Position numbers and translations under genes: made by a program
In this document: one piece after another, positions 3,402 through 18,217 of the stretch
How positions within the stretch are numbered: the first letter of the stretch is position 1
How the letters are laid out: each line of letters starts with the position of its first letter
From: Candidatus Rokuibacteriota bacterium
GTDB taxonomy: Bacteria; Methylomirabilota; Methylomirabilia; Rokubacteriales; CSP1-6
Direction: 5' to 3'
Assembly: GCA_003221435.1 (NCBI GenBank)
Contig: QHRS01000051.1
Span: forward strand, 1-33,878
Length of the DNA stretch: 33,878 bases
The notes under the pieces: model-generated
Told to the model about the DNA's origin: nothing
What the model saw: only the letters and a program-made list of their open reading frames with translations
Databases searched by the model: none

Positions 3402-4775
3402 ATGATCTTCCAGCAGCTCATCAATGACGAGGCAGGCTGCCTGTCGTACCTGATCGGCTGCGCGCGCGCCGGGGCGGCGATGATCGTCGATCCCGGGCGC
3501 GACCGCGTGAGCGATTACATCTCCCTCGCGCGGCGCAAGGGCCTCACGATCACCCACATTGTCGAGACGCACCTCCACGCGGACCACGTCTCCGGCAACC
3601 AGGCGCTCGCGGCCCAGACGGGCGCCACGATCTGCATGCATGCCGCGGCGGAGGCGAGGTTCCGTCACCTGCCGGTCGAGCACGACAACGAGCTGCGCGT
3701 CGGCAGCGTCAGCCTCCAGGTGATCCACACGCCCGGCCACACGCCCGACAGCATCTCGCTGCTGGTGACGGATGAGAGCCGCGGTCCCGAGCCCTGGTTC
3801 ATCCTGACCGGAGACACGCTGTTCGTCGGCGACGTCGGCCGTCCCGACTTCGGGGGGGAGACGGCGGCGGCGGACCTGTACCGGAGCCTGACCGAGCGCT
3901 TGCTCGTGCTCGACGACAGCGTCGAGGTTTATCCGGCGCACGGCGCCGGGTCCGCGTGCGGCCGCGCGATGTCGTCCAAGGCAGGCTCGACCATCGGGTT
4001 CGAGCGCCGGTTCAACCCGGCGCTCCGGGTTCGCGATGCGGAGGAGTTCGTCAGGAACCTCCTGGCGGGCCTGCCGCCCCAGCCGCCGAACTTCAAGACG
4101 ATCATCGAGCGGAACCGGTCCGTCGCCCCCCTCACGCTCCCCGAGCCTCGGGCCCTCTCCGCGTACGATGTCCGCGAACTGATCGCCGACGGCGCAGTCG
4201 CCCTCGACATCCGTGCCCCGGCGGAGTACGGCGAGGGGCACATTCCGCGCGCGGTGAACGTCTGGATCGAGAGCCCGCAGTTCGCCGAGCGATGCGGGTG
4301 GTTCATTCCGCAGGACGCGGCGATCGTCCTCGTCGCGCCGGGCCCGACCGAGATCTCGCGGGCGGTCGGCGGCCTCTCGCGCGTCGGCCTCGACGGCGTG
4401 CGGGGATACCTGCAGCGAGGCATGACTGACTGGCGCAGCGCGGGGCTGCCCGCCGAGAGCGTGCCGCAGATCACCGTCCACGATCTCGCGACCTGGCGCG
4501 AGGAGCAGCCGGATCTGGTCGTCGTCGACGTGCGCGAGCCGTTCGAGTGGGACGAGGGCCACATCGCGGGCGCCGTGCACCTGCCGATGCGCGCGGCGCT
4601 GGCGCGGCTGGCGGAGCTGCCGGCGGATCGGCCCAAGGCCGTTCTGTGTGCCGCGGGGTCTCGCTCGAGCACGGTCATCAGCGCGCTCAGGCGCTCGGGC
4701 GCGCGCGGCCCCTGGTACAATGTGAGTGGCGGGATGACCGCGTGGCAGAAGGTCGGATACGGAGTGGTGCGGTAG
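3402..4775 (+). CDS. Persulfide dioxygenase (MBL fold) fused to two rhodanese domains (CstB-like architecture)
   Basis: 457 aa. MBL metal motifs HLHADHVSG, HTPGHTPDS, GDTLFVGDVGRPD, YPAHGAGS. Two rhodanese-like modules follow (ALDIRAPAEYGEGHIPRAVNV; VVDVREPFEWDEGHIAGAVHLP) with an active-site loop CAAGSRSS in the second. Confidence 0.85.
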   Translation: MIFQQLINDEAGCLSYLIGCARAGAAMIVDPGRDRVSDYISLARRKGLTITHIVETHLHADHVSGNQALAAQTGATICMHAAAEARFRHLPVEHDNELRVGSVSLQVIHTPGHTPDSISLLVTDESRGPEPWFILTGDTLFVGDVGRPDFGGETAAADLYRSLTERLLVLDDSVEVYPAHGAGSACGRAMSSKAGSTIGFERRFNPALRVRDAEEFVRNLLAGLPPQPPNFKTIIERNRSVAPLTLPEPRALSAYDVRELIADGAVALDIRAPAEYGEGHIPRAVNVWIESPQFAERCGWFIPQDAAIVLVAPGPTEISRAVGGLSRVGLDGVRGYLQRGMTDWRSAGLPAESVPQITVHDLATWREEQPDLVVVDVREPFEWDEGHIAGAVHLPMRAALARLAELPADRPKAVLCAAGSRSSTVISALRRSGARGPWYNVSGGMTAWQKVGYGVVR

Positions 4776-4838: not shown

Positions 4839-5510
4839 ATGCCCGACGATAACTTCGATTACCCCATCATGTCGCGCGCCCTGATTCTGGGCGACCGAGA
4901 CACCGTGGCGCGCAAGACACGGGAAGGGCTCGACCTGTCGATGGATCCGAAGGAGCTGATCTTCAGGGGACTGATTCCGGGCATGGACGTGGTTGGCGAG
5001 AAATTCCGGCGCAACGAGTACTACGTGCCCCAGGTACTGCTGTCCGCGCGCGCGATGTACGCGGGCCTCGATCTGCTCAAGCCCTTGATCACGGCCAGCG
5101 CGAAGGCCGACGACTACTTCGGCACCGTCGTCATCGGGACCGCGCAGGGCGATCTCCACGACATCGGCAAGAACCTCGTCGCGATGATGCTCGAAGGGGC
5201 GGGCTTCAAGGTGGTGAACCTCGGCCGTGACGTCGCGCCGGAGGCGTTCGCCAAGGCCGTCCTGGAGCACAGCGCCAACATCGTCGGCATCTCGGCGCTC
5301 ATGACGACGACGATGCCAGCGATGAAGCGGACGATCGACGCGCTGACGAGGGCGGGCGTGCGCGATCGGGTCAAGGTGATGATCGGCGGCGCGCCCGTCA
5401 GCCAGACGTATGCCGACGAGATCGGCGCGGACGGCTATGCGAGGGATTCGACGGCGGCCGTCATCAAGGCCAAGCAGCTGCTCGGCGTGCGCGCGGAGGT
5501 CGCGCGGTGA
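4839..5510 (+). CDS. Corrinoid (cobalamin)-binding protein, MtaC/MtbC type (B12 cap plus Rossmann domain)
   Basis: 223 aa. Cap region (YYVPQVLLSARAM), the DxHxxG motif in GTAQGDLHDIGKNLV, SALMTTT and GGAP motifs. Its stop overlaps the next start (GTGA at 5507-5510). Confidence 0.9.
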   Translation: MPDDNFDYPIMSRALILGDRDTVARKTREGLDLSMDPKELIFRGLIPGMDVVGEKFRRNEYYVPQVLLSARAMYAGLDLLKPLITASAKADDYFGTVVIGTAQGDLHDIGKNLVAMMLEGAGFKVVNLGRDVAPEAFAKAVLEHSANIVGISALMTTTMPAMKRTIDALTRAGVRDRVKVMIGGAPVSQTYADEIGADGYARDSTAAVIKAKQLLGVRAEVAR

Positions 5511-6421
5511 AGCCGCACGGCTGGGAGGTGCTCGAGCGCACCAGGGGCGGCGGTGTGCTGGTCTTCGACGGCGGCTACGGAACCGAGCTGTTCGCGGCGG
5601 GCCTGGCGAACGGCGCCTGCCCGGAGCTGTGGAACGACACGCACGCAGATGTCGTCACGCGCATCCACAAGGGCTACTACGACGCGGGCAGCGAGATCGT
5701 CGAGACCAACACGTTCGGCGGCACCCGGCTCAAGCTGAACGAGTACAGGATCGGCGACTGGACGCGCAAGCTGAATGAGAAGGGCGCGCGCCTCGCGCGC
5801 TCGGTCTGCCCGCCCGGCCTGTACGTCGCGGGCTCCATCGGCCCCACGAGCCGTCTGCCCGCGGAGTACGAGCCGCTCGGCGACACGACCGACGGGGACT
5901 ACTTCGAGGCGTTCCGCGAGCAGGCGGAGGCGCTCGCCGAGGGGGGCGTGGATCTGTTCGCGGTGGAGACGATGATGTTCCCCCAGGAGGCGACGGCGGC
6001 GATCCGCGCCTGCAAGGCGGTCGCTGACCTCCCGGTGATGGCCACGATGTTCTTCCAGTTCGAGGAGCTCCACGACCGCGACCGCACGATGTGGGGCGAG
6101 AGCCCGGCGGAGGTCGCGAAGAACCTCCTGTCGGCGGGCGCGGACATCGTCGGCATGAACTGTGGCCGCGGCCCGGATCGCGCGATCATGATCATCCGCG
6201 AGATGCGCGCGGTCACGAACGCCCCGCTGGTGGCGTACCCGAACGCCGGGCTGCCGATCACGAGGGGCGACACCGTGACGTACGAGCTGGGCCCCGAGGA
6301 GATGGCGCGGCACTACCCGGCCCTGCTCGACGCGGGGTGTAACATCGTGGGCGCGTGTTGCGGATCGAATCCCGCCCACATTCGCCACATCGCCGAGGTC
6401 GTCCGCTCCCGCCCACGGTGA
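5507..6421 (+). CDS. Homocysteine S-methyltransferase-family protein (MetH N-terminal-module-like, Zn-dependent)
   Basis: 304 aa. DGGYGTELF and ETNTFGG motifs. Zn-ligand cysteines in GMNCG and GACCGSNPAHI. GTGA start/stop overlaps on both sides. Confidence 0.88.
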   Translation: MKPHGWEVLERTRGGGVLVFDGGYGTELFAAGLANGACPELWNDTHADVVTRIHKGYYDAGSEIVETNTFGGTRLKLNEYRIGDWTRKLNEKGARLARSVCPPGLYVAGSIGPTSRLPAEYEPLGDTTDGDYFEAFREQAEALAEGGVDLFAVETMMFPQEATAAIRACKAVADLPVMATMFFQFEELHDRDRTMWGESPAEVAKNLLSAGADIVGMNCGRGPDRAIMIIREMRAVTNAPLVAYPNAGLPITRGDTVTYELGPEEMARHYPALLDAGCNIVGACCGSNPAHIRHIAEVVRSRPR

Positions 6422-7143
6422 CCGAGTCGGTTCTCGCCTGCGAGCCGGCCCTCGTCGAAGGCCTCCCGCTCTCGATCGATCGAGATGAAGTCCTGAGGTT
6501 TCAGGGCTACAAGAACGGGAGCGGCGCGCCGAGCGCCGAGGTCCTCGAGCTCTTCGCCGAGGCCCGGTCTCTCGCCGAGGCGCTGCTTGCGCCCCGCGTG
6601 GCCTACCGGGCGGTTCCGGCAGTTCTCGCGCGCGGCGTCATTCGCGCGGGCGACCAGTCACTCAGCGTCCCGGAGATCGGCCGGCTCTGGGGGACGCTGA
6701 CCCACGTCGGCGTCGGCGTCTGCACGATCGGCGACGCGCTCGAGGCTCGGGTGGCAGACCTGTTCAGTGCCCGTGAGTTCCCGCTCGCGGTGATGCTCGA
6801 CTCGGTCGGGTCCGCGGCGACCGAGCACCTGGCGGAATCCGCCAACGACCGCCTCTGCCAGCTCGCCATTCCGGTCGGGCTCAAGGTCACGAACCGGATC
6901 AGTCCCGGCTACGCCGGCTGGAATGTGGCGGACCAGCGCGCGCTGTTCACCCTCTGCCCCGGTGAGCCCGCGGGCGTCAGCCTCAACGAGTTCTGCTTTA
7001 TGACCCCGACGAAGAGCATCTCCTTCATGGTCGGGATCGGCCCCGACGTCCGGGTCGATCACTACTTCACGCAGTGCCGGCGGTGCTGGATGCGCGACTG
7101 CGCGTACCGCCGTGCGCCCGCACCGGTCACGTACGCCCGATGA
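6418..7143 (+). CDS. Methionine-synthase (MetH) activation-domain-like protein
   Basis: I place the start at GTG 6418 (GTGA overlap with the upstream stop); the ORF-track start at 6355 lies inside the upstream gene. RISPGYAGWNVADQRALFTLC...GVSLNEFCFMTPTKSISFMVGIG parallels the MetH reactivation-domain core (R.APGYPACP...LTESFAM.P..SVSG). C-terminal CRRCWMRDC. Confidence 0.7.
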   Translation: MTESVLACEPALVEGLPLSIDRDEVLRFQGYKNGSGAPSAEVLELFAEARSLAEALLAPRVAYRAVPAVLARGVIRAGDQSLSVPEIGRLWGTLTHVGVGVCTIGDALEARVADLFSAREFPLAVMLDSVGSAATEHLAESANDRLCQLAIPVGLKVTNRISPGYAGWNVADQRALFTLCPGEPAGVSLNEFCFMTPTKSISFMVGIGPDVRVDHYFTQCRRCWMRDCAYRRAPAPVTYAR

Positions 7144-7363: not shown

Positions 7364-7885
7364 ATGGCCGACCTGATCATGCTGGTCGGGTTCATGGGCG
7401 CCGGCAAGTCCGTGGTTGGCCGGTTGCTGGCGCGGCGGCTCGGGCGCTGTTTCGTCGAGACCGATGATCTGATCGTCGCCCGCGAGGGCCGGTCGATCCT
7501 CGAGGTCTTCCGCGAGTCCGGCGAGGCGCGCTTTCGCGCGCTCGAGGCCGAAGCGGTCGAGGCGCTGCGGCTCAAGCGCGGCGACGTGATCGCGACCGGC
7601 GGCGGGCTGCCGTGCCGCGAGGGACGCATGGAGCTGCTGCGCTCGCTCGGCACCGTGGTCTGGCTCAAGGGTGACTTCACCGAGATGTACGAGCGCGCGA
7701 CGCGGGCGGGCGAGCGGCCGATGCTGGCCGAGCGGTCCCCGGCCGAGGTCGTGGCGCTCTATCAGGAGCGCGAGCCGTACTACGGCCAGGCGCACATCAC
7801 GATCGAGACGCGGGGACTCGGCGTCGACCAGGTCGTCGGACGCATTGTCGCCGCGCTGCGGGAGCCCCATGGCGCACGCGCTTGA
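7364..7885 (+). CDS. aroK: Shikimate kinase
   Basis: Start at ATG 7364 (MADLIMLVGFMGAGKSVVGRLLARRLG... = P-loop GxxGxGKS, then FVETDDLI, RALE, ATGGG). The longer ORF-track version (from 7112) runs through the repeat element and is rejected. Confidence 0.88.
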   Translation: MADLIMLVGFMGAGKSVVGRLLARRLGRCFVETDDLIVAREGRSILEVFRESGEARFRALEAEAVEALRLKRGDVIATGGGLPCREGRMELLRSLGTVVWLKGDFTEMYERATRAGERPMLAERSPAEVVALYQEREPYYGQAHITIETRGLGVDQVVGRIVAALREPHGARA

Positions 7886-9713
7886 CGAGCGCCTGGCTCG
7901 AGAGCCGCTGCTCTGCGACGGGGCCATGGGGACGCTCCTCTACGCGCGAGGCGTCCCGCTCGACGCCTGCTTCGACGAGCTGAACATGAACAATCCCGCG
8001 CTCGTTCAGGCGATTCACGCCGAGTACATCGCGGCGGGCGCGGACTGCATCGAGACCAACACCTTCGGCGCCAACCGGTTCAAGCTGGCGATCCACGGCC
8101 TCGAGGCGCGGGTGCGCGAGATCAACCTGCGCGGCGTCAAGCTCGCGCGCGACGTGCGCGAGACGATGGGGCGTGACGTGCTGGTCCTGGGCGCGGTGGG
8201 GCCGCTCGGCAAGTACCTGGCGCCGCTGGGAGCCCTCACCGAGGGCGAGGCGCGCACCGCGTTCCGCGAGCAGGCGGAAGGCCTCCTCGAGGGGGGCGTG
8301 GACGGGTTCGTCGTCGAAACGATGTCGGACCTGGGCGAGATGGCGCTCGCCGTGGAGGCGATCCGGGCCGTGACCGACCTGCCGATCATCGCCGAGGTCG
8401 CGTTCACGGACGAGGGCGTCACGTTCCTCGGCCGCACACCGGCCGAGGTGGCGCGGGCACTCTGCGCGCTGCCGGTCCAGGCGATCGGCGCGAACTGCTC
8501 GGTCGGGTCGAGCACACTCTACGAAGTGCTCGAGCAGATTCGCCCTGAAGCCGGCGCCCGCCCGATCGCCATCCAGCCGAATGCCGGCCTCCCGAGTCGC
8601 GTCGGCGAGCGGCTCATCTACCTCTCGTCGCCGGCCTACATGGCCGATTACGCCGCCCGCATGCTCGCCGCGGGCGCCCGCCTGGTCGGTGGATGCTGCG
8701 GCACCACGCCCGAGCACATCAGCGCGATGCGCAAGGTGATGGATCGCGCGCCGTTGGCGCGGTCCGCGGGACGGGTGGAGGCGCCCGCCCGGACGCGAAG
8801 CGAAAGCGCGCCGGCACTCCGAACGGCTGCGCCCCCGACGCTCCTCCAGCGAAAGCTCGAGGCGGGTGAGTTCGTCGTGACCGTGGAGCTTGATCCGCCG
8901 CGGGGTCACAACATCGAGAAGCTCGTCCAGGGCGCGAAGCTCCTCAAGGAGCGGGGCGCGGAGATCGTCGACATCAACGACGGGTCGCTCGGCCGCATTC
9001 GCATGGCGGTGCTGCCGACGGGGGTGCTGGTGCGGGAGTCGACCGGGCTCGAGATCAACATGCACTTCACGTGTCGAGACCGGAACCTCATGGGGATCCA
9101 GGCCGACCTCCTCGGCGCCCACGCGCTCGACGTGCGCAACATTCTGGCGATGACGGGCGATCCACCGCGCACCGGGGACTACGTCAACGCCACGGCCGTG
9201 TTCGACGTGGACGCGATCGGGCTGATCGGCATTCTCCAGCGGATGAACCAGGGGCTCGACGCGACCGGCAACAGCATCGGCGAGCCGACGGCGTTCTGCG
9301 TCGGCGCCGCGCTGGATCCGGCCGCCGCGGAGCCCCGGCTGGAGATCGAGCGCATGCGGAAGAAGATCGAAGCGGGCGCGCGATGGTTCCAGACCCAGCC
9401 GGTCTACGACCTCGAGGGTCTCGACGATTTCCTCGCGCGCGCCGGCGCGCCGAGGGTGCCCGTGCTCGTCGGGGTCATGCCGCTGCACAGCTCGCGCCAC
9501 GCGGAGTTCCTGCACAACGAGGTGCCCGGCATCACGATTCCCGACCGAGTCCGCGCCCGCATGCGCGAGGCCGGGGACAGGGGGCTCGCGGCAGGCATCG
9601 AGATGGCCCAGGAGACTCTCCGGCTGGTCCGCCGGCGATACGCCGGCGCCTACCTGATGCCGTCCTTCGGCCGTTACGAGGTCGTCGCGGAAGTTCTGGA
9701 CGCATTGCGGTGA
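7869..9713 (+). CDS. Bifunctional homocysteine S-methyltransferase / 5,10-methylenetetrahydrofolate reductase (YitJ-like fusion)
   Basis: Start at ATG 7869 (MAHALDERLAREPLLCDGAMGTLLY), overlapping aroK by 17 nt. N-terminal half: ETNTFGAN, GANCSVG, GGCCGTTPEHI. C-terminal half is MTHFR-like: FVVTVELDPPRG, DINDG, HFTCRDRN, LAMTGDPP, FQTQPVYD, VGVMPL. Confidence 0.88.
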   Translation: MAHALDERLAREPLLCDGAMGTLLYARGVPLDACFDELNMNNPALVQAIHAEYIAAGADCIETNTFGANRFKLAIHGLEARVREINLRGVKLARDVRETMGRDVLVLGAVGPLGKYLAPLGALTEGEARTAFREQAEGLLEGGVDGFVVETMSDLGEMALAVEAIRAVTDLPIIAEVAFTDEGVTFLGRTPAEVARALCALPVQAIGANCSVGSSTLYEVLEQIRPEAGARPIAIQPNAGLPSRVGERLIYLSSPAYMADYAARMLAAGARLVGGCCGTTPEHISAMRKVMDRAPLARSAGRVEAPARTRSESAPALRTAAPPTLLQRKLEAGEFVVTVELDPPRGHNIEKLVQGAKLLKERGAEIVDINDGSLGRIRMAVLPTGVLVRESTGLEINMHFTCRDRNLMGIQADLLGAHALDVRNILAMTGDPPRTGDYVNATAVFDVDAIGLIGILQRMNQGLDATGNSIGEPTAFCVGAALDPAAAEPRLEIERMRKKIEAGARWFQTQPVYDLEGLDDFLARAGAPRVPVLVGVMPLHSSRHAEFLHNEVPGITIPDRVRARMREAGDRGLAAGIEMAQETLRLVRRRYAGAYLMPSFGRYEVVAEVLDALR

Positions 9714-11269: not shown

Positions 11270-11650
11270 ATGGCAGCAAAACTGTATATCGGTGGCCTGT
11301 CGTACTCCACGACCAGCGAAGGGCTTCGCGAGTTCTTCGCCCAGTGCGGGACCGTCGAGTCCGCGACCGTCATCACGGACCGTTTCTCCGGACAATCCCG
11401 GGGCTTTGGCTTCGTCGAGATGAGCTCGGCCGAGGACGCCCAGAAAGCGATCGCCCAGCTCAATGGGCGTGAGCTCGACGGCCGGCGCTTGACCGTGGCG
11501 GTCTCGAACCCGCAGGCCCCGCGCACCGGTGGCGGGCGTCCAGGCGGTGGCGGCGGTCGGCGTCCCGGCGGCGGTGGTGGCCGCGGGCCCGGTGGTGGTG
11601 GCCGCGAAAGTGGCTACGCCCACCGTCCCTCCAAGCCGGTTCGCTGGTAA
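11270..11650 (+). CDS. RRM (RNP-1/RNP-2) RNA-binding protein with Arg/Gly-rich tail
   Basis: 126 aa. RNP-2 LYIGGL and RNP-1 RGFGFVEM. The tail is GGGRPGGGGGRRPGGGGGRGPGGGGRE. Good SD. Confidence 0.92.
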   Translation: MAAKLYIGGLSYSTTSEGLREFFAQCGTVESATVITDRFSGQSRGFGFVEMSSAEDAQKAIAQLNGRELDGRRLTVAVSNPQAPRTGGGRPGGGGGRRPGGGGGRGPGGGGRESGYAHRPSKPVRW

Positions 11651-11788
11651 GAACCTCGGCGGGGGGCTTCGCCCCCCTTCCGAACCTCTCCCCGGAGTTG
11701 CGCCGCCGGAGCCGGTGCTTGATAGCTCGGCTGGGGGCTTCGCTCCCCGTCCGAACCTCCCCCCGGGCGGAGCCGGCGCTCGACGAAG
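11651..11788 (-). repeat. Repeat family A, two degenerate tandem units in inverse orientation
   Basis: GGCGGGGGGCTTCGCCCCCCTTCCGAACCTC... and GGCTGGGGGCTTCGCTCCCCGTCCGAACCTCCCCCCGGGCGGAGCCGGCGCTCGA match the reverse complement of the H3..H1 modules. They sit between convergent genes. Confidence 0.65.
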
Positions 11789-11846
11789 CAACGGCGTGGG
11801 ATCCCTCACCACGCCGTTTTCGTGTTAGTCCGCGGGCCGGACGGCG

Positions 11847-13640
11847 TTATCCGAAGAGGCGGTCCGACCGTGGCGGGATCTCGCACGACGTCGACAGAAT
11901 GAAGCCCGAATACTTTGCCGCCGCGTCGACGCAGCGCTTGACGTCAGCCTCCATCGCCTGCTTCGTGGTCTTCTCGAACTTCGTCGCGTCCACGTTCCCG
12001 ATGGCCACGGTCCGTCCCCTGGACACCTCCATGAACCGGACGAGCTGGTCCACGTGGAGATTCGGGTCCGACTGCTGGTCCAGGTCGAACGAGAACGTGC
12101 TGAAGCCGCAGCTGATCACGTCCTCGAAGATCGGGTACGTGGTTCCGCAGATGTGGGTCGTGACGCCGACCTTCTTGGCCTTGAAGTAGTCGACCAGCTC
12201 TTTGTGGTACGGCGCGATGAACTCACGGTAGTTGTCGGGTGACACGAGGCTGATCGAGGCCGTCGGCTCCGAGAAGCTGAGCCCGATCCTGGTCTTGCTG
12301 ATCGCGTCGCCCCAGATCTTGCAGAAGTCGGTCGTGACGCGCATCAGGTCGTGGATGAACCGCGGGTCCTCGAACGTGTCGAGGAGCATGACCTCGGGGT
12401 TGCGCATCAGCATGGCGATCGTCCAGGGACCGACCGCCACGGCGCCGGTCGCCGCCGGCGGGGCCGCCTTCATGAGCGCCTCGCACTGCTCGAGGAAGCC
12501 GGGCAGGCGCGCCGTGCTGTACGGGTCCGGCATCCTGACGTGCGCGAGCTTGCCCTTGTCGTCGCCCAGGACGTGGCCTTCGATCGACGGGACGACATAG
12601 TCCGAGTACTTGACCCTGCACCCGAACGCCTCGGCCTCTTTGGCGAGATCGTTGTAGGCGAGCACCACGTCCGGCTGGAACCGCTCGTAGTAATTCATCA
12701 TGGCCTTGATGGCCCGCGTTGGGCTCGTGCAGTACTCCTCGATCGAAAGCCCGTCGAGCGTCCCCGCGAACGACGCCACGATCGGGTAGACGGGGACCCG
12801 GTCCGCGAACGAGCGTCTGTAGGCCGCGACGACCCGATCGCGGTTCGTGTAGGTCGCTCGGCCATGCTCCACGTCCCAGAGCTTGTTGACTTCCATATAC
12901 TTGGGCGGGAGCTTCGCCTCGTACTCCATGAACTGGGTGATGGGGTAGCGGATGCCGCCGGCGTGGGTGCCGCGCAGCCCCTCGATGATCTCCTCCATGT
13001 GGCTCCACGGGGTCGAGAACGCCATCTCGTGGTCCTGGGTCTGGCCGAAGATGCGGTCGCCCGAGCAGGGTAGGATGACCTGAGGCCGGTCCGTCTTCAT
13101 CACGGTCACGATGATCTCGCTGCAGTCGATGCGGCCGCCGAACGACGACGTCAGCTTGCCGCCGCGCTTCCAGAGCGCCGCCTGCGTGAGCCGCATGACC
13201 TGCGCCGGGTTCGCGTAGATGCACACGACGTGCGGCTCGAACGGCGCCCGGTCGAGCGGCGAGACGAGCAGGCAGGAGAATTCGCCCGGCTCGAACTTGT
13301 CCACCGCCGCCTCAGAGCGCTGGCCGGCTTCCTTCGTCTCGGTGTACATGCCCTCGCAGAGCGTGCCGGAATTGTAGAGGTGCGTGGGCTTGTCGAAGCC
13401 GAGCGCGGTGATCCCGAGCGAGCAGATGTGGTCCTCGCGGGTCAGCGCGATCATCCAGCCGTACCGCCGGGCCATGTCGATGACCTGACAGTTCATGCTG
13501 AGCTTCTTGAAGTCGCGCGCGGGGCGCTTGGCCTTGTCGGGGATCGGCTCGCCCGGCCGGAGCATGCGGATCGCCACCGGAAAGGTCTGCGGCCGGATAT
13601 AGAACTGCAGCTCTTTATCCGCCGTCTTGACGTCGATCAT
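11847..13640 (-). CDS. Fusion protein: N-terminal DUF169 domain plus C-terminal MtaA/MtbA/UroD-family (Zn) methyltransferase domain
   Basis: 597 aa. N-terminal roughly 250 aa are DUF169-like (FPVAIRML...MNCQVIDMARRYG...TREDHICSLGITALGF...GGRIDCSEII). The C-terminal roughly 340 aa are URO-D fold (NRDRVVAAYRRSFADRVPVYP, AYNDLAKEAEAFG, GPWTIAMLM) with Zn motif THICGTT and a distal STSCEIPP. Confidence 0.8.
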   Translation of the reverse strand: MIDVKTADKELQFYIRPQTFPVAIRMLRPGEPIPDKAKRPARDFKKLSMNCQVIDMARRYGWMIALTREDHICSLGITALGFDKPTHLYNSGTLCEGMYTETKEAGQRSEAAVDKFEPGEFSCLLVSPLDRAPFEPHVVCIYANPAQVMRLTQAALWKRGGKLTSSFGGRIDCSEIIVTVMKTDRPQVILPCSGDRIFGQTQDHEMAFSTPWSHMEEIIEGLRGTHAGGIRYPITQFMEYEAKLPPKYMEVNKLWDVEHGRATYTNRDRVVAAYRRSFADRVPVYPIVASFAGTLDGLSIEEYCTSPTRAIKAMMNYYERFQPDVVLAYNDLAKEAEAFGCRVKYSDYVVPSIEGHVLGDDKGKLAHVRMPDPYSTARLPGFLEQCEALMKAAPPAATGAVAVGPWTIAMLMRNPEVMLLDTFEDPRFIHDLMRVTTDFCKIWGDAISKTRIGLSFSEPTASISLVSPDNYREFIAPYHKELVDYFKAKKVGVTTHICGTTYPIFEDVISCGFSTFSFDLDQQSDPNLHVDQLVRFMEVSRGRTVAIGNVDATKFEKTTKQAMEADVKRCVDAAAKYSGFILSTSCEIPPRSDRLFG

Positions 13641-13792
13641 GTGCTCCTCCGCTCGTTCCGTCGTCGGCTCGTGCGCGATTCGAGCCTACCCGGGGCGTCG
13701 GGGGGGTGTCAAGCAACCCCCGCCCTCGGTTCAGTCCTTCGACCCCATGAGGTAGACGCACTCGCGCTTGACGTCATCCCAGTGGTTGCCGT

Positions 13793-13950
13793 CCTCCAGG
13801 AGCCTGTCGCAGTAACCGGCTCCGAGCGCCGGCTTTGCCGGCGCAATTCGTTCGAGTGGTCGCCTGCGCGGTGCGGGGCCCAGCCCCGCGAACCGCTCGG
13901 CTCCCCAAACCTGGAGGAGGCTCGGAGGGGGCCGTCGAGGCCCCCTCCGA
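13793..13950 (+). repeat. Repeat family A, full unit (leader module plus H1 plus H2 plus H3)
   Basis: CAGGAGCCTGTCGCAGTAACCGGCTCCGAGCGCCGGCTTTGCCGGCGCAAT...GCGGGGC-CCA-GCCCCGC (13873-13889)...GGAGGGGGCC-GTCGA-GGCCCCCTCC (13924-13948). Confidence 0.85.
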
Positions 13951-13955
13951 TAGGG

Positions 13956-14636
13956 TCATCCCATCAACCCGATGAATGCGGCCAGCGTCGCGGCGCCAGC
14001 ATCGACCGACGGCGCCGGCGCCCGGGGACGCCGGGAAAGGTCATGCGTGCCGCCCTCGATCGGGACGAGGACGGTCGGCGCGGGGATCAACGCGAGCGCC
14101 GATCGCATCTCGTCGAGAGAGCCGAACGGGTCTCGCGAGCCATGCACGAAGAGCGCGCGCACGCGGAGCCTCGGAAAATGCGCGGTCCTGAGCTCCCGAG
14201 GCCGCCGCGGCGGGTGCAGCGGATACGAGAGTAGCAGCAGCCCTGCGGCCAGGTCGGGTTCCTCAGCGGCCAGGATGGTCGCCTGCCGCCCGCCATACGA
14301 ATGCCCGCCCAGGAACACGCGCCCGGGCGCGAGCTTCCGGACCGCCAGGACCGCGCGCCGCAGGCCCTCGCGGTCGTGCGCGGCGGCCGACAACGGCGGC
14401 GGGCCGCTCGAGCGCGCACGGCGGAACGGGAGGTCGGAGCGGAGCACCAGGAACCCCCGGGCGGCAAACGCGCTCGCGATGGCCACGAGGAGCGGCGCCC
14501 GGCAATCCGAGCCGGCTCCGTGCGTCAGGACCAGCGCGTCGCCCGAGGGCGTCGCCGGTCGATGGAGGAACCCGCGCACAGCCGGTCCTCCGGATGGCGC
14601 GTCCTCGAATGGCTCCGCGCTGGATTGGCTCGTCAC
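13956..14636 (-). CDS. Alpha/beta-fold hydrolase (dienelactone-hydrolase / KANL3-Tex30-like)
   Basis: 226 aa with a GTG start. LVLTHGAGSD, nucleophile elbow GGHSYGG, later HGSRDPF and GGTHDL (Ser-Asp-His order). Confidence 0.75.
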   Translation of the reverse strand: MTSQSSAEPFEDAPSGGPAVRGFLHRPATPSGDALVLTHGAGSDCRAPLLVAIASAFAARGFLVLRSDLPFRRARSSGPPPLSAAAHDREGLRRAVLAVRKLAPGRVFLGGHSYGGRQATILAAEEPDLAAGLLLLSYPLHPPRRPRELRTAHFPRLRVRALFVHGSRDPFGSLDEMRSALALIPAPTVLVPIEGGTHDLSRRPRAPAPSVDAGAATLAAFIGLMG

Positions 14637-14645
14637 GTCTTTTCC

Positions 14646-14744
14646 CTAAGAGCCTCTCCGAGAAACCGACTTCGAGCGCCGGCTTTGCCGGCGCAATCCG
14701 GTTTTGGGGGAGGCTCGGAGGGGGCCATCGCGGCCCCCTTCGAT
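14646..14744 (+). repeat. Repeat family A, short unit (leader module plus H1 plus H3, no H2)
   Basis: CTAAGAGCCTCTCCGAGAAACCGACTTCGAGCGCCGGCTTTGCCGGCGCAATCCGGTTTTGGGGGAGGCTCGGAGGGGGCCATCGCGGCCCCCTTCGA. Confidence 0.85.
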
Positions 14745-14960
14745 GCTCGAGTGCCTACCGATGATGCCACAGGCGGGCGGGCGGAGGACCGTTCCGTGCG
14801 GCGCGCAGCGCCGACGGCGGGAACGGGTCACCGCTGCGGTACAATGCTGCGCATGGCGCCGCGCCGTCCTGTCCCCAGTGGAGCGAGTGCCTCACGCGGC
14901 CAACGGGTCCGCCACGACAAGACGTCCTCACGGCTCGGTGAGCAACAAGGAGATCCGTCA

Positions 14961-16388
<1,428 letters not shown>

Positions 16389-16396
16389 CAGCGTCG

Positions 16397-16425
16397 TTTA
16401 CACCGCGGGGCGTGTCCCGTATCAT
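16397..16425 (+). promoter_or_regulatory. Candidate promoter TTTACA-17 nt-TATCAT directly abutting GTG 16435
   Basis: TTTACA at 16397-16402 and TATCAT at 16420-16425. Only 9 nt separate the -10 box from the start codon, and there is no SD. Confidence 0.45.
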
Positions 16426-16434
16426 CGGGCGCCG

Positions 16435-16719
16435 GTGGCGCGCTACCGGATCATCGGCTGGAAGGAAATCCCGTCGCTCGTGGAGGCCTGGGATGCGGAG
16501 CGCACGGTGCGGATGCCGCTGTCGCAACGATTCCAGGACCTGATCGACGCGGTGGCGATGCGCCAGGGCGCCTCCGAGGGCGAGGCGTATCTGGAGGGGT
16601 GGATTCCTGGCCCCGAAGGGGAGCGCCCCGGCGAGGCTCAGCTGGTCGCGGACGCGGTCGCGGCGGAGCTGGAGTCGGCGTTCGGAGACTTCGTCGACCG
16701 CTATCTCGGCGCTCGGTGA
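16435..16719 (+). CDS. Small conserved protein (resembles the so-called virulence-factor family of ~90-aa proteins)
   Basis: 94 aa with high GC3. YRIIGWKEIPSLVEAW...LSQRFQDLIDAVAMRQG...AYLEGW resembles the pattern I recall for that family (Y.I.YWRDIPAQV...RF...ID.AAM...YL..W). The family assignment is from memory only. Confidence 0.6.
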   Translation: MARYRIIGWKEIPSLVEAWDAERTVRMPLSQRFQDLIDAVAMRQGASEGEAYLEGWIPGPEGERPGEAQLVADAVAAELESAFGDFVDRYLGAR

Positions 16720-16882
16720 CATGCGGGCCGGATGAGCGCGCGCGGTTCGAGAAGGGGCGGTAACGGCCAGCCCCATCTCCACGGCGAGATGAACGCTTTG
16801 CGGCCGCGCTCAAGCGGCCGGGGTGCCCTCACGAGCCGCCCTTGTTGCACGACGACGTGTTCTGTCGGCGCTCCGCGCAGAA

Positions 16883-18217
16883 TCACGCGCGAGTCGCCTG
16901 AACCTCCTCGGTCCAGATGCTCATCTTGCGCGTCTCCGGCATCACGAACAGGGCGATCAGGAACATGATGGCCGGCAGCCCGATGGGATACACGAGCGCC
17001 CAACCGACGCTGTGGGTGTTCAGGTACACCGCCGTCGTGATGATGGGCACGAGACCCCCGCCCCAGCCGTTGCCTATGTGATAGGGCACCGACACCGAGG
17101 TGTAGCGGATGCGCCCGGGGAAGAATTCCGCGAGGAACGCGGCGATTGGGCCATAGGTCATGCCCACGTAGTTGACCAGGATCACGATGATGAGGATGGA
17201 CATCCCGTAGTTGACGTTCTTTGGATCGGCGTAGTTGCCGAGGGCCATGTAGAGGGGATAGTAGGTCAGCGAGGCGAGGAGCATGCCGCCGAGGATGATC
17301 GGCTTCCGGCCGATCTTGTCCGAGAGCCAGCCCCAGAAGACCAGCGTCGGGGTCGCGATGAGCAGCCCGATGCCGACGATGTAGCTCGAGGTCAGCACGT
17401 CGATCTTCTGGACCTTCTGCAAGAAATAGAGCGCCCAGAACTGGCCGCTGTACCAGACGCACCCCTGACCCAGCACGACCACGCTGGCGATCAGCACGTA
17501 CTTGATGTTGCGGCTCAGGAAGGCCTCGCGCCAGGGGTTCTTGCTGGTCTGCCCCTTCGCCTTGATCTCCTGGAAGATCGGGGTCTCCTGGAGCGAGAGC
17601 CGGATGTAGATGGCGATGGCGACCAGGAGGAGCGAGATGATGAACGGGATCCGCCAGCCCCACTCGTTGAATGCCGCGTCGCCGAGGTACTTCTGCGTCC
17701 CGATGATCACGGCCAGCGACACGACGATCCCGAGCGTGGGCGACGTCTGGAGCCACCCGGTGTAATACCCGCGCTTTTCGTCCGAGATGTGCTCGGCCAC
17801 GTACGTGATGGCGCCGCCATACTCCCCGCCCAGGCAGAGGCCCTGAATCAAGCGGAGGACGAAGAGGGTGACCGCGGCGGCGAGGCCGATGGCAGCATAG
17901 GTCGGAACGAAGCCGATAAGGGCCGTCGAAACCCCCATGCCGCTCAGCGTCGCGATGAACGTGTACTTCCGGCCCACCCGGTCGCCGAGCCAGCCGAACA
18001 CGAGCGCTCCCAGCGGCCGGATCAGGAAGCCGATCGAGAAGATCGCCACGGTGCTGAGGAAGGCCGCCACCGGATGGCTCTTTTCGAAGAACTTGACCGC
18101 GAGGATCGAGGCCAGGCTTCCGAAGATGTAGAAGTCGTACCACTCGATGACGTTCCCGACTGCTGCGGCGATGACGACACGGCGGAGTTCTTTCAGCGGA
18201 AGATTAGGCGACAGCAT
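16883..18217 (-). CDS. MFS transporter, metabolite:H+ symporter (MHS) type
   Basis: 444 aa with about 12 hydrophobic segments. N-terminal GNVIEWYDFYIFG and the MFS loop motif GWLGDRVGRKYTF. Confidence 0.9.
   Translation of the reverse strand: MLSPNLPLKELRRVVIAAAVGNVIEWYDFYIFGSLASILAVKFFEKSHPVAAFLSTVAIFSIGFLIRPLGALVFGWLGDRVGRKYTFIATLSGMGVSTALIGFVPTYAAIGLAAAVTLFVLRLIQGLCLGGEYGGAITYVAEHISDEKRGYYTGWLQTSPTLGIVVSLAVIIGTQKYLGDAAFNEWGWRIPFIISLLLVAIAIYIRLSLQETPIFQEIKAKGQTSKNPWREAFLSRNIKYVLIASVVVLGQGCVWYSGQFWALYFLQKVQKIDVLTSSYIVGIGLLIATPTLVFWGWLSDKIGRKPIILGGMLLASLTYYPLYMALGNYADPKNVNYGMSILIIVILVNYVGMTYGPIAAFLAEFFPGRIRYTSVSVPYHIGNGWGGGLVPIITTAVYLNTHSVGWALVYPIGLPAIMFLIALFVMPETRKMSIWTEEVQATRA

Follow-up and report, generated by a model that had tools for sequence, protein, structure and literature searches.

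A conserved fusion of DUF169 to an MtaA-like methyltransferase domain in Rokubacteria as a candidate partner of a split methionine synthase

The contig QHRS01000051.1 of a Candidatus Rokuibacteriota bacterium (33,878 nucleotides [nt]; assembly GCA_003221435.1), hereafter called the window, carries on its minus strand, at positions 11847 to 13640, a single ATG-initiated open reading frame (ORF) of 597 amino acids (aa) that joins a DUF169 domain to a URO-D-fold domain. The fusion gene is real and strongly conserved, and its URO-D half resembles MtaA, a methanogen methyltransferase, and not the uroporphyrinogen decarboxylase HemE. From the predicted domains and the gene neighborhoods of relatives taken together, there is about an even chance that the fusion is a donor-side methyltransferase, which would load the corrinoid protein encoded at 4839 to 5510 from a methylated sulfur or selenium compound for methionine synthesis. 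As the initial annotation of this stretch had proposed, both domains lie in one ORF. A Pfam scan of the protein places DUF169 at aa 11 to 221 (12978 to 13610, minus strand; PF02596, E value of 1.9e-56, model positions 2 to 209 of 209, and 191.6 bits against a cutoff of 27) and the URO-D-fold, MtaA-like methyltransferase domain at aa 265 to 592 (11865 to 12848, minus strand; PF01208, E value of 4.8e-50, and model positions 1 to 331 of 346). The cysteine and histidine motifs quoted in that annotation are all present in the translation, where they read LSMNCQVID, REDHICSLG, RIDCSEII, TTHICGTT, and STSCEIPP. The fusion proteins bear generic database names, such as "MtaA/CmuA family methyltransferase" and "uroporphyrinogen decarboxylase family protein," and no study of a DUF169-URO-D fusion was found in the literature.

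A word-indexed protein search with the fusion returned 701 proteins at an E value of ≤1e-5, and the best 120 of these all contain both Pfam domains in one chain of 606 to 639 aa, with identities of 83 to 100%. The fused homologs make up over 100 protein clusters, with independent assemblies from JGI, ENA, NCBI, and Logan as their sources, and the named ones are from Candidatus Rokubacteria; an exhaustive search of representatives also identified P0121, a full-length fusion with 66% identity. The fusion is present as a single ORF in 24 of 80 GTDB species loci, all of which are from Methylomirabilota (Rokubacteria, NC10, and Methylomirabilales) or unclassified bins. Likewise, most of the 80 metagenome loci from a DUF169-centered scan, which was meant to sample diverse contexts, proved to carry the same Rokubacteria fusion. 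The uninterrupted fusion in more than 100 independent clusters and 24 GTDB species genomes rules out an assembly or frameshift artifact that merged two genes, the objection that the initial annotation had raised against itself.

In other lineages, the two domains are encoded by neighboring genes. Adjacent DUF169 and URO-D genes were found in 14 of the 56 non-fused GTDB loci, from Nitrospinota, Thermodesulfobacteriota, Desulfobacterales, Clostridia, and Chloroflexota. DUF169 lies directly upstream of URO-D in ten of them (L010, L016, L020, L024, L025, L027, L031, L037, L041, and L046) and directly downstream in four (L017, L018, L021, and L040), and a further pair, outside this count, occurs in L091. 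The two genes overlap in a Nitrospinota genome (L009/L010), where DUF169 (265 aa) runs into the start of URO-D (335 aa). These adjacent and often overlapping split genes indicate that the fusion records a partnership kept in at least five other phyla. A neighbor-joining tree of 87 URO-D domains revealed that the Methylomirabilota fusions form one clade, and its sister clade holds the DUF169- or corrinoid-linked members L010, L013, L016, L018, L021, L024, L034, and L091.

The best NCBIfam match of the URO-D half is TIGR01463 (mtaA_cmuA), with 108.5 bits against a cutoff of 235.4. The PRK06252, MtbA, and MtaA models score 76 to 90 bits, with the MtaA and MtbA equivalogs at 76 to 77 against cutoffs of 400 to 600, and the hemE model (TIGR01464) scores 24.6 bits against a cutoff of 302.95, so that the equivalog level is not reached. 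Because the methyltransferase models score best but all remain below their cutoffs, the domain is placed on the methyltransferase side of the superfamily without being an ortholog of any named enzyme; judged by these scores, it is a distinct, unnamed subfamily and no MtaA or MtbA ortholog. When the whole protein was compared with PDB sequences, only MtaA of Methanosarcina mazei matched (4ay7; E value of 7.5e-14), and a PDB search with a profile of six relatives gave E values of 1.1e-31 for 4ay7 and 1.1e-12 for the best uroporphyrinogen decarboxylase. An AlphaFold2 model of the fusion, built from a 100-sequence alignment, has a mean predicted local distance difference test (pLDDT) score of 92.5. 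In Foldseek searches with this model, the C-terminal half fits best on 4ay7, with template modeling (TM) scores of 0.84 to 0.85 versus 0.72 to 0.78 for decarboxylases, and the whole model returned nothing beyond triosephosphate isomerase (TIM)-barrel matches to the URO-D half. The low hemE score and the better profile and fold matches to MtaA rule out a HemE identity, and the earlier assignment of this half as MtaA-like is borne out by profile scores, PDB search, and fold comparison alike.

The predicted zinc site of the URO-D half also follows MtaA. The first two predicted ligands are encoded by the His496-Ile-Cys498 codons (12147 to 12155, minus strand; THICGTT), which align with HICG of 4ay7, and the distal ligand is encoded by the Cys586 codon (11883 to 11885, minus strand; STSCEIPP), which aligns with the cysteine of APGCG in the same structure. 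His496, Cys498, and Cys586 are invariant in two alignments of relatives (60 of 60 and 87 of 87). A His-Cys-Cys sphere marks S- and Se-methyltransferases within the URO-D superfamily, whereas O-demethylases replace the cysteines (Kountz and Balskus preprint, PMC10418091), and this mark points to a sulfur or selenium substrate for the fusion. The chloromethane enzyme CdmB contains no zinc (PMC13222342). CdmB is a marginal match to the profile of fusion relatives, with an E value of 1.9e-4.

The window copy of the gene carries a deletion near its end. At a junction at 11859 to 11864 (minus strand), 54 bp are missing in frame, by which 18 aa between Asp and Arg are gone, four codons before the stop. 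These 18 residues (PEVVRWFMDSTHDFGRYE in the closest relative, by protein alignment) are present in every homolog and are conserved among them (…WFMD.A.EYGRY…). The L093 protein is otherwise 100% identical to the window fusion, and a DNA alignment shows the loss to be clean. The loss may be genuine, as a deletion allele, or may stem from a collapse in the assembly.

The DUF169 half shares its full conserved region with stand-alone members of the family. This region extends to about aa 258 (nt 12867), stand-alone proteins align over aa 1 to 258, and the fusion's domain is 45 to 60% identical to most stand-alone members, which are about 260 aa long and range from Bacillota to Chloroflexota. Four cysteines encoded within 13065 to 13490 (minus strand), namely, C51 (13488 to 13490), C73 (13422 to 13424), C173 (13122 to 13124), and C192 (13065 to 13067), are conserved in 55 of 55 sequences in an alignment of fused and stand-alone DUF169 proteins, in which His226 is conserved in 53 of 55. 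Each of these cysteines is located at, or just ahead of, a predicted helix start in the AlphaFold2 model, which hints at a Cys4 site for a metal or an Fe-S cluster. A model of DUF169 alone (pLDDT of 91.8) showed no significant fold match to the PDB by Foldseek, the best having an E value of 0.3 and a TM score of about 0.2, and with no usable fold relative, no function can be transferred from structure. DUF169/COG2043 is widespread, with 1,752 clusters at an E value of ≤1e-10 in one search, and the literature on it yielded passing mentions and no characterization. DUF169 is drawn beside the corrinoid protein HgcA in Nitrospina (bioRxiv 10.1101/648329), and other mentions concern co-occurrence with YedE, a position near SepRS, and a position beside a TauE-like permease in Desulfovibrio. 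A different fusion architecture was seen in P0159 (574 aa), in which DUF169 (residues ~166 to 425) has further domains on both its N-terminal and its C-terminal side.

The proposed partner of the fusion belongs to a cassette of plus-strand genes. It is a free MtgC/MtaC-type corrinoid protein (4839 to 5510) with B12-binding_2 and B12-binding domains in a cap-plus-Rossmann arrangement, and its best NCBIfam matches are MtgC and TIGR02370 ("methyltransferase cognate corrinoid protein"), at 206 to 208 bits, with MetH scoring lower. The next gene (5507 to 6421) encodes a homocysteine-binding methyltransferase of the MetH N-terminal/BHMT-like type (PF02574, E value of 1.8e-70; NCBIfam matches to the MetH N terminus, BHMT, and YitJ), which is the proposed acceptor module. 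It is followed by a gene (6355 to 7143) for a TM0269-like protein with a MetH reactivation domain, which binds S-adenosylmethionine (SAM). Although the Pfam match of this protein to Met_synt_B12 is weak, as is that of its L090 ortholog, a profile of six orthologs matches TM0269 of Thermotoga maritima (PDB 1j6r) with an E value of 4.9e-15 and also, at 1e-5, the activation domains of complete MetH proteins. In the product, the SPGY motif is retained, and a further, invariant CxxCx4C is found C-terminally, outside the TM0269 alignment. Pterin-binding (PF00809), MttB-type, and MtaB-type methyltransferases were not found among the window ORFs scanned, and no PF00809 module was found in the Rokubacteria flanks examined. 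With B12-binding, homocysteine-binding, and reactivation modules and no pterin-binding module within the window, the cassette is read as a split methionine synthase without the usual methyl-donor module, in agreement with the earlier description of a free corrinoid protein whose methyl donor enzyme is missing from the window.

Comparative genomics of the neighborhoods connects URO-D orthologs with corrinoid proteins. The two are adjacent in five loci: L021 (pterin-binding methyltransferase, corrinoid protein, URO-D, and DUF169), L034 (pterin methyltransferase, corrinoid protein, and URO-D), L025 (DUF169, URO-D, and corrinoid protein), and L028 and L044 (corrinoid protein and then URO-D). They share an operon in L091, where DUF169, URO-D, acyl-coenzyme A (CoA) dehydrogenase, electron transfer flavoprotein (ETF)-beta, ETF-alpha, and corrinoid protein genes follow one another, and they are fused in P0467, in which a URO-D domain is joined to B12-binding_2 and B12-binding domains in a CmuA-like architecture. 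In L026 and L090, an operon encodes a corrinoid protein, a homocysteine S-methyltransferase, an ~250-aa protein with the reactivation domain, and, last, a URO-D protein. This is the gene series found at 4839 to 7143 in the window, and the two URO-D genes are only 69% identical and come from different samples. In addition, a homocysteine methyltransferase gene and a gene for a 250-aa protein lie 1.7 kb from an NC10-type fusion (L143). Since an acceptor module is already present in L026/L090 (homocysteine) and L021/L034 (pterin), the URO-D protein would, by elimination, be the substrate-specific donor enzyme. These neighborhoods back the proposal that the fusion is a candidate partner of the window's corrinoid protein, as either the methyl-loading or the methyl-removing enzyme. 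A lack of co-occurrence with corrinoid proteins, which the initial annotation had named as a refutation, is not what these loci show.

Within Rokubacteria, the whole cassette occupies the same relative position in L003 as in the window, and the YitJ-like gene does so in L087, L115, L126, L139, L151, L152, and L161, where the flanks end before the corrinoid gene. Between the window and L003, no products are better conserved than the corrinoid protein (89% identity) and the fusion (88%). Neighboring products are 67 to 80% identical in this comparison, and 65 to 80% with the malic enzyme in L001 included.

Side observations were made in the same set of loci. L025 also contains (14627 to 17260) a gene whose 877-aa product unites three parts, namely, a URO-D-like domain, a pterin-binding methyltransferase, and a domain for corrinoid binding. 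In L092 (6541 to 9038), a URO-D ortholog comes immediately after selA (selenocysteine synthase) in the same orientation, a possible selenium link that is in line with the literature on Mlp proteins. Genes for CoA-transferase subunits, AMP-forming/PaaK-like CoA ligases, acyl-CoA dehydrogenases, and HpaB/AbfD-like proteins flank DUF169/URO-D in L014, L015, L024, L027, L031, L039, L041, L043, and L046, which are from Desulfobacterales/Thermodesulfobacteriota, with L024 from a Clostridia metagenome-assembled genome (MAG). Such neighbors hint at a methylated carboxylic acid as the substrate in these loci.

In the mechanism proposed here, the URO-D half would act as a His-Cys-Cys zinc methyltransferase with the chemistry of MtaA/MtsA and the Mlp proteins. 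Methyl groups would pass between a small compound of sulfur or selenium and the cobalt of a free-standing corrinoid protein, which in the window would be the MtgC-like product of 4839 to 5510. A methyl-S or methyl-Se compound and the Co(I) protein would yield the CH3-Co(III) protein and a thiol or selenol. The homocysteine module (5507 to 6421) would then make methionine, and the TM0269-like protein would rescue oxidized cobalt with SAM. DUF169 would serve as a metal-binding accessory with a four-cysteine site (Fe-S or Zn), as an obligate partner that is fused or translationally coupled to the methyltransferases of this clade, and would either deliver or receive the sulfur or selenium substrate or pass electrons that keep the cobalt reduced. 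More speculatively, and with a low probability in our estimate, Rokubacteria might possess a B12-dependent, folate-independent methionine synthase, to which the fusion would bring methyl groups from an environmental sulfur or selenium compound, for example, methanethiol, dimethyl sulfide, methylthiopropionate, or dimethyl selenide, with DUF169 as a new Cys4 metallodomain capturing sulfide or selenide or supplying the reactivation electron.

Several observations weigh against this donor-side role. The fusion gene seems to be monocistronic, is on the strand opposite to the cassette, and is separated by 6.3 kb from the corrinoid gene. The separation of 4.7 kb from the corrinoid cassette given in the initial annotation holds for the end of the reactivation gene (7143) and not for the corrinoid gene itself, and the last methionine-related gene of the cassette operon ends 2.1 kb away, at 9713. 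No cassette lies within 10 kb of the fusion in L001/L002. The URO-D half scores far below the NCBIfam MtaA and MtbA cutoffs, and the URO-D proteins of the L026/L090 operons are without DUF169 and belong to another subclade than the fusions in the neighbor-joining tree. Many orthologs are surrounded by genes for CoA ligases and transferases, acyl-CoA dehydrogenases, and methylmalonyl-CoA mutase, and no corrinoid methyltransferase partner is visible there. A pterin-binding methyltransferase may be encoded elsewhere in the genome, in which case the cassette may not lack a donor, and the window copy of the fusion, without its 18 C-terminal residues, may be impaired. Finally, stand-alone DUF169 proteins exist without URO-D: those that are approximately 50 to 55% identical to P0131 or to the window's DUF169 half and have no URO-D neighbor show that DUF169 is not exclusively a methyltransferase accessory.

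The strongest alternative, which we consider improbable but worth weighing, places the fusion on the acceptor side, with the URO-D half moving a methyl group from the corrinoid protein to a thiol, sulfide, or selenide presented by DUF169. The outcome would be a volatile or excreted methyl-chalcogenide, or detoxification. MtaA, the closest solved relative, works in that direction, the reaction is chemically reversible, and L021 and L034 could run from methyl-tetrahydrofolate through the corrinoid protein to a thiol; ClMlp2 was assayed as a methylcobalamin:selenide methyltransferase (PMC10418091). However, in L026 and L090, the homocysteine and URO-D modules would then both be acceptors, and a donor would be missing. 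These phyla are also not known to have an acceptor cofactor such as coenzyme M.

Cobalamin processing would be a more general role, in which DUF169 and URO-D would take off or replace the upper ligand of incoming corrinoids, or restore B12 enzymes that have become inactive, and so serve any B12 enzyme, for example, by thiol-dependent demethylation of methylcobalamin in analogy to human CblC/MMACHC. This possibility draws on a series of methylmalonyl-CoA mutase clusters. In Thermodesulfobacteriota, clusters of MeaB, methylmalonyl-CoA mutase, B12-subunit, and epimerase genes are closed by a stand-alone DUF169 gene (L005 to L007, L017, L120, and L122), the product of which is approximately 55% identical to the stand-alone P0131. 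In L017, a URO-D gene is inserted directly ahead of DUF169 at the cluster end, in L122, an MtaC-type corrinoid gene is nearby, and with L022 and L038 included, DUF169, URO-D, or both end the mutase clusters of eight loci. The position of DUF169 beside HgcA in Nitrospina (bioRxiv 10.1101/648329) fits this role as well, as do the monocistronic arrangement of the fusion gene and its strong conservation in Rokubacteria. Nevertheless, many DUF169 genes have no B12-related neighbor. In Bacillus tianshenii, the DUF169 gene comes after a ZnuA-type transporter gene, and in Hazenella and Eremiobacterota, its neighbors are unrelated; the absence of a common theme among these additional stand-alone contexts leaves a general "B12 accessory" role of DUF169 not established. 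The operons with pterin or homocysteine methyltransferases, moreover, resemble ordinary methyl transfer pathways. A cobalamin-processing role is rated as quite unlikely. DUF169 is thus a partner of the MtaA-like clade, but not only that, and it may function in sulfide or selenide handling, in electron input, or in a general B12-related role.

The chance is slighter still that the fusion is a corrinoid-independent zinc enzyme of organic-acid or acyl-CoA catabolism, such as a decarboxylase or a thioether-cleaving enzyme, and that its corrinoid neighbors are coincidental. The URO-D fold was originally that of a decarboxylase, and CoA transferase, AMP-forming/PaaK-like ligase, acyl-CoA dehydrogenase, ETF, and HpaB/AbfD-like genes are frequent neighbors in Thermodesulfobacteriota/Desulfobacterales. 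CoA-activating enzymes, however, are also expected beside demethylases of methylthio- or methoxy-carboxylic acids, and the invariant His-Cys-Cys site, the greater likeness of the domain to MtaA than to decarboxylases, the repeated independent adjacencies to corrinoid genes, and the one fusion to corrinoid domains all speak against such an enzyme. That the fusion is an assembly or frameshift artifact, or its URO-D half a true HemE, has a negligible probability and is refuted by the more than 100 fused clusters, the 24 fused GTDB genomes, and a hemE score of only 24.6 bits against a cutoff of about 303, even though split gene pairs occur in other phyla and frameshifted entries (P0124, P0127, and L088) exist in the databases.

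The donor-side reading places the fusion among several known systems, none of which it matches in full. The methanogen soluble methylcobamide:coenzyme M methyltransferases MtaA, MtbA, and MtsA (4AY7) share with it the URO-D TIM barrel and the aligned His-x-Cys...Cys ligands, and, judging from the neighborhoods, the fusion would likewise work with a separate MtaC-type corrinoid protein. Unlike them, it is only about 21 to 22% identical in sequence, occurs in bacterial phyla without known coenzyme M, carries an N-terminal DUF169, and probably acts on the donor side. Non-methanogens have MtaA-like His-Cys-Cys proteins as well, the Mlp proteins. For those of type 1 mlp clusters, which are without a folate methyltransferase, a role as methyl-S/Se demethylases charging a corrinoid protein is proposed; these clusters combine two or three Mlp paralogs with a Ram/RACE activase and are found in obligate anaerobes, the majority of them Firmicutes (PMC10418091). 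The window differs from them in gene content by its single URO-D domain, its fusion to DUF169, and its connection to a homocysteine methyltransferase and a reactivation domain of the MetH type, and neither a second URO-D gene nor a RACE-type protein was found among the window ORFs scanned. CmuA (chloromethane), MtvB, OdmB, VdmB, MtoB, and CdmB are URO-D-fold donor-side enzymes that load Co(I) from a small methyl donor, as the fusion would, but CmuA itself is a methyltransferase fused to a corrinoid domain, whereas the fusion partner in the window is DUF169.

The cassette resembles split methionine synthases, namely, MtgBCDE and MetH plus TM0269 of T. maritima (1J6R), in having separate corrinoid, homocysteine, and TM0269-like reactivation proteins. 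It departs from them in that no pterin-binding module was found in the cassette or elsewhere in the window, in its proposed donor enzyme, which would be of the URO-D type and not of the MttB type, and in the extra CxxCx4C on the reactivation protein. In Phaeobacter/Ruegeria, the corrinoid protein of MtgBCDE is common to methionine synthesis and a catabolic methyltransferase (PMC12478193), which is a precedent for the shared carrier proposed here. Among DUF169 proteins (PF02596 and COG2043), the fusion has the full-length match and the four invariant cysteines common to stand-alone members, and unlike almost all described members, which are stand-alone proteins of about 260 aa, it is joined to a methyltransferase.

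Judging from its immediate surroundings, the fusion gene seems to form a transcription unit by itself. Its upstream neighbors vary between genomes, and at its 3′ end it is convergent with a plus-strand gene (11270 to 11650) for a glycine/arginine-rich RRM RNA-binding protein, a pairing seen in nearly all Rokubacteria loci examined. In the upstream intergenic region (13641 to 13955), TTGACA (13707 to 13712) and TAGGCT (13683 to 13688), separated by an 18-nt spacer, and a GGAGGA ribosome-binding site can be recognized by eye on the minus strand. A scan of 11600 to 14000 for consensus promoters and terminators called none. A search for a sigma-54 promoter upstream of the fusion gene found none, with fewer matches than in shuffled sequence; sigma-54 regulators adjoin orthologs in L009, L091, and L030. 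A scan of the whole window at Rfam gathering thresholds found no riboswitch or other RNA family.

The operon of the cassette is headed by a plus-strand gene (3402 to 4775) for a protein with Pfam metallo-beta-lactamase-fold and rhodanese domains, which is syntenic in L003. Its product has weak NCBIfam similarity to the sulfurtransferase/dioxygenase Blh and possibly functions in sulfur handling. Genes for a shikimate kinase, a YitJ-like homocysteine S-methyltransferase fused to methylenetetrahydrofolate reductase (MTHFR), and an amidase lie downstream of the cassette. The YitJ-like fusion (7671 to 9713, plus strand; PF02574 and PF02219) matches PRK08645 with 706 bits, above the cutoff; it belongs to the same operon, and the start of its ORF is probably overextended. 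The rest of the window is housekeeping and encodes malic enzyme, a major facilitator superfamily (MFS) transporter, DksA, GDPD, an acyltransferase, a threonine-dehydratase-like PALP/ACT protein, asparaginase, UDG, HtrA, M16 peptidases, and ABC transporters. The 695-aa ORF at 14301 to 16388 (plus strand), with ACT and malic enzyme domains, is overextended at its 5′ end and overlaps a hydrolase gene on the opposite strand; its L001 homolog has 475 aa.

The fusion is plausibly a corrinoid methyltransferase of the URO-D superfamily with an uncharacterized and structurally novel accessory domain, and it may complete a split methionine synthase that lacks a folate module. The conserved fusion and the split gene pairs tie DUF169 to an MtaA-type zinc methyltransferase and, through the neighborhoods, to corrinoid proteins, and this link yields a concrete hypothesis that can be assayed. 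If it is true, it would provide the first function for the widespread DUF169 family and a new input route for methyl groups into methionine synthesis, and it would extend the recently recognized principle of one corrinoid carrier serving both methionine synthesis and catabolic demethylation. Rokubacteria are among the most abundant soil bacteria, and the proposed pathway would then also constitute a sink for methylated sulfur and selenium compounds in soils.

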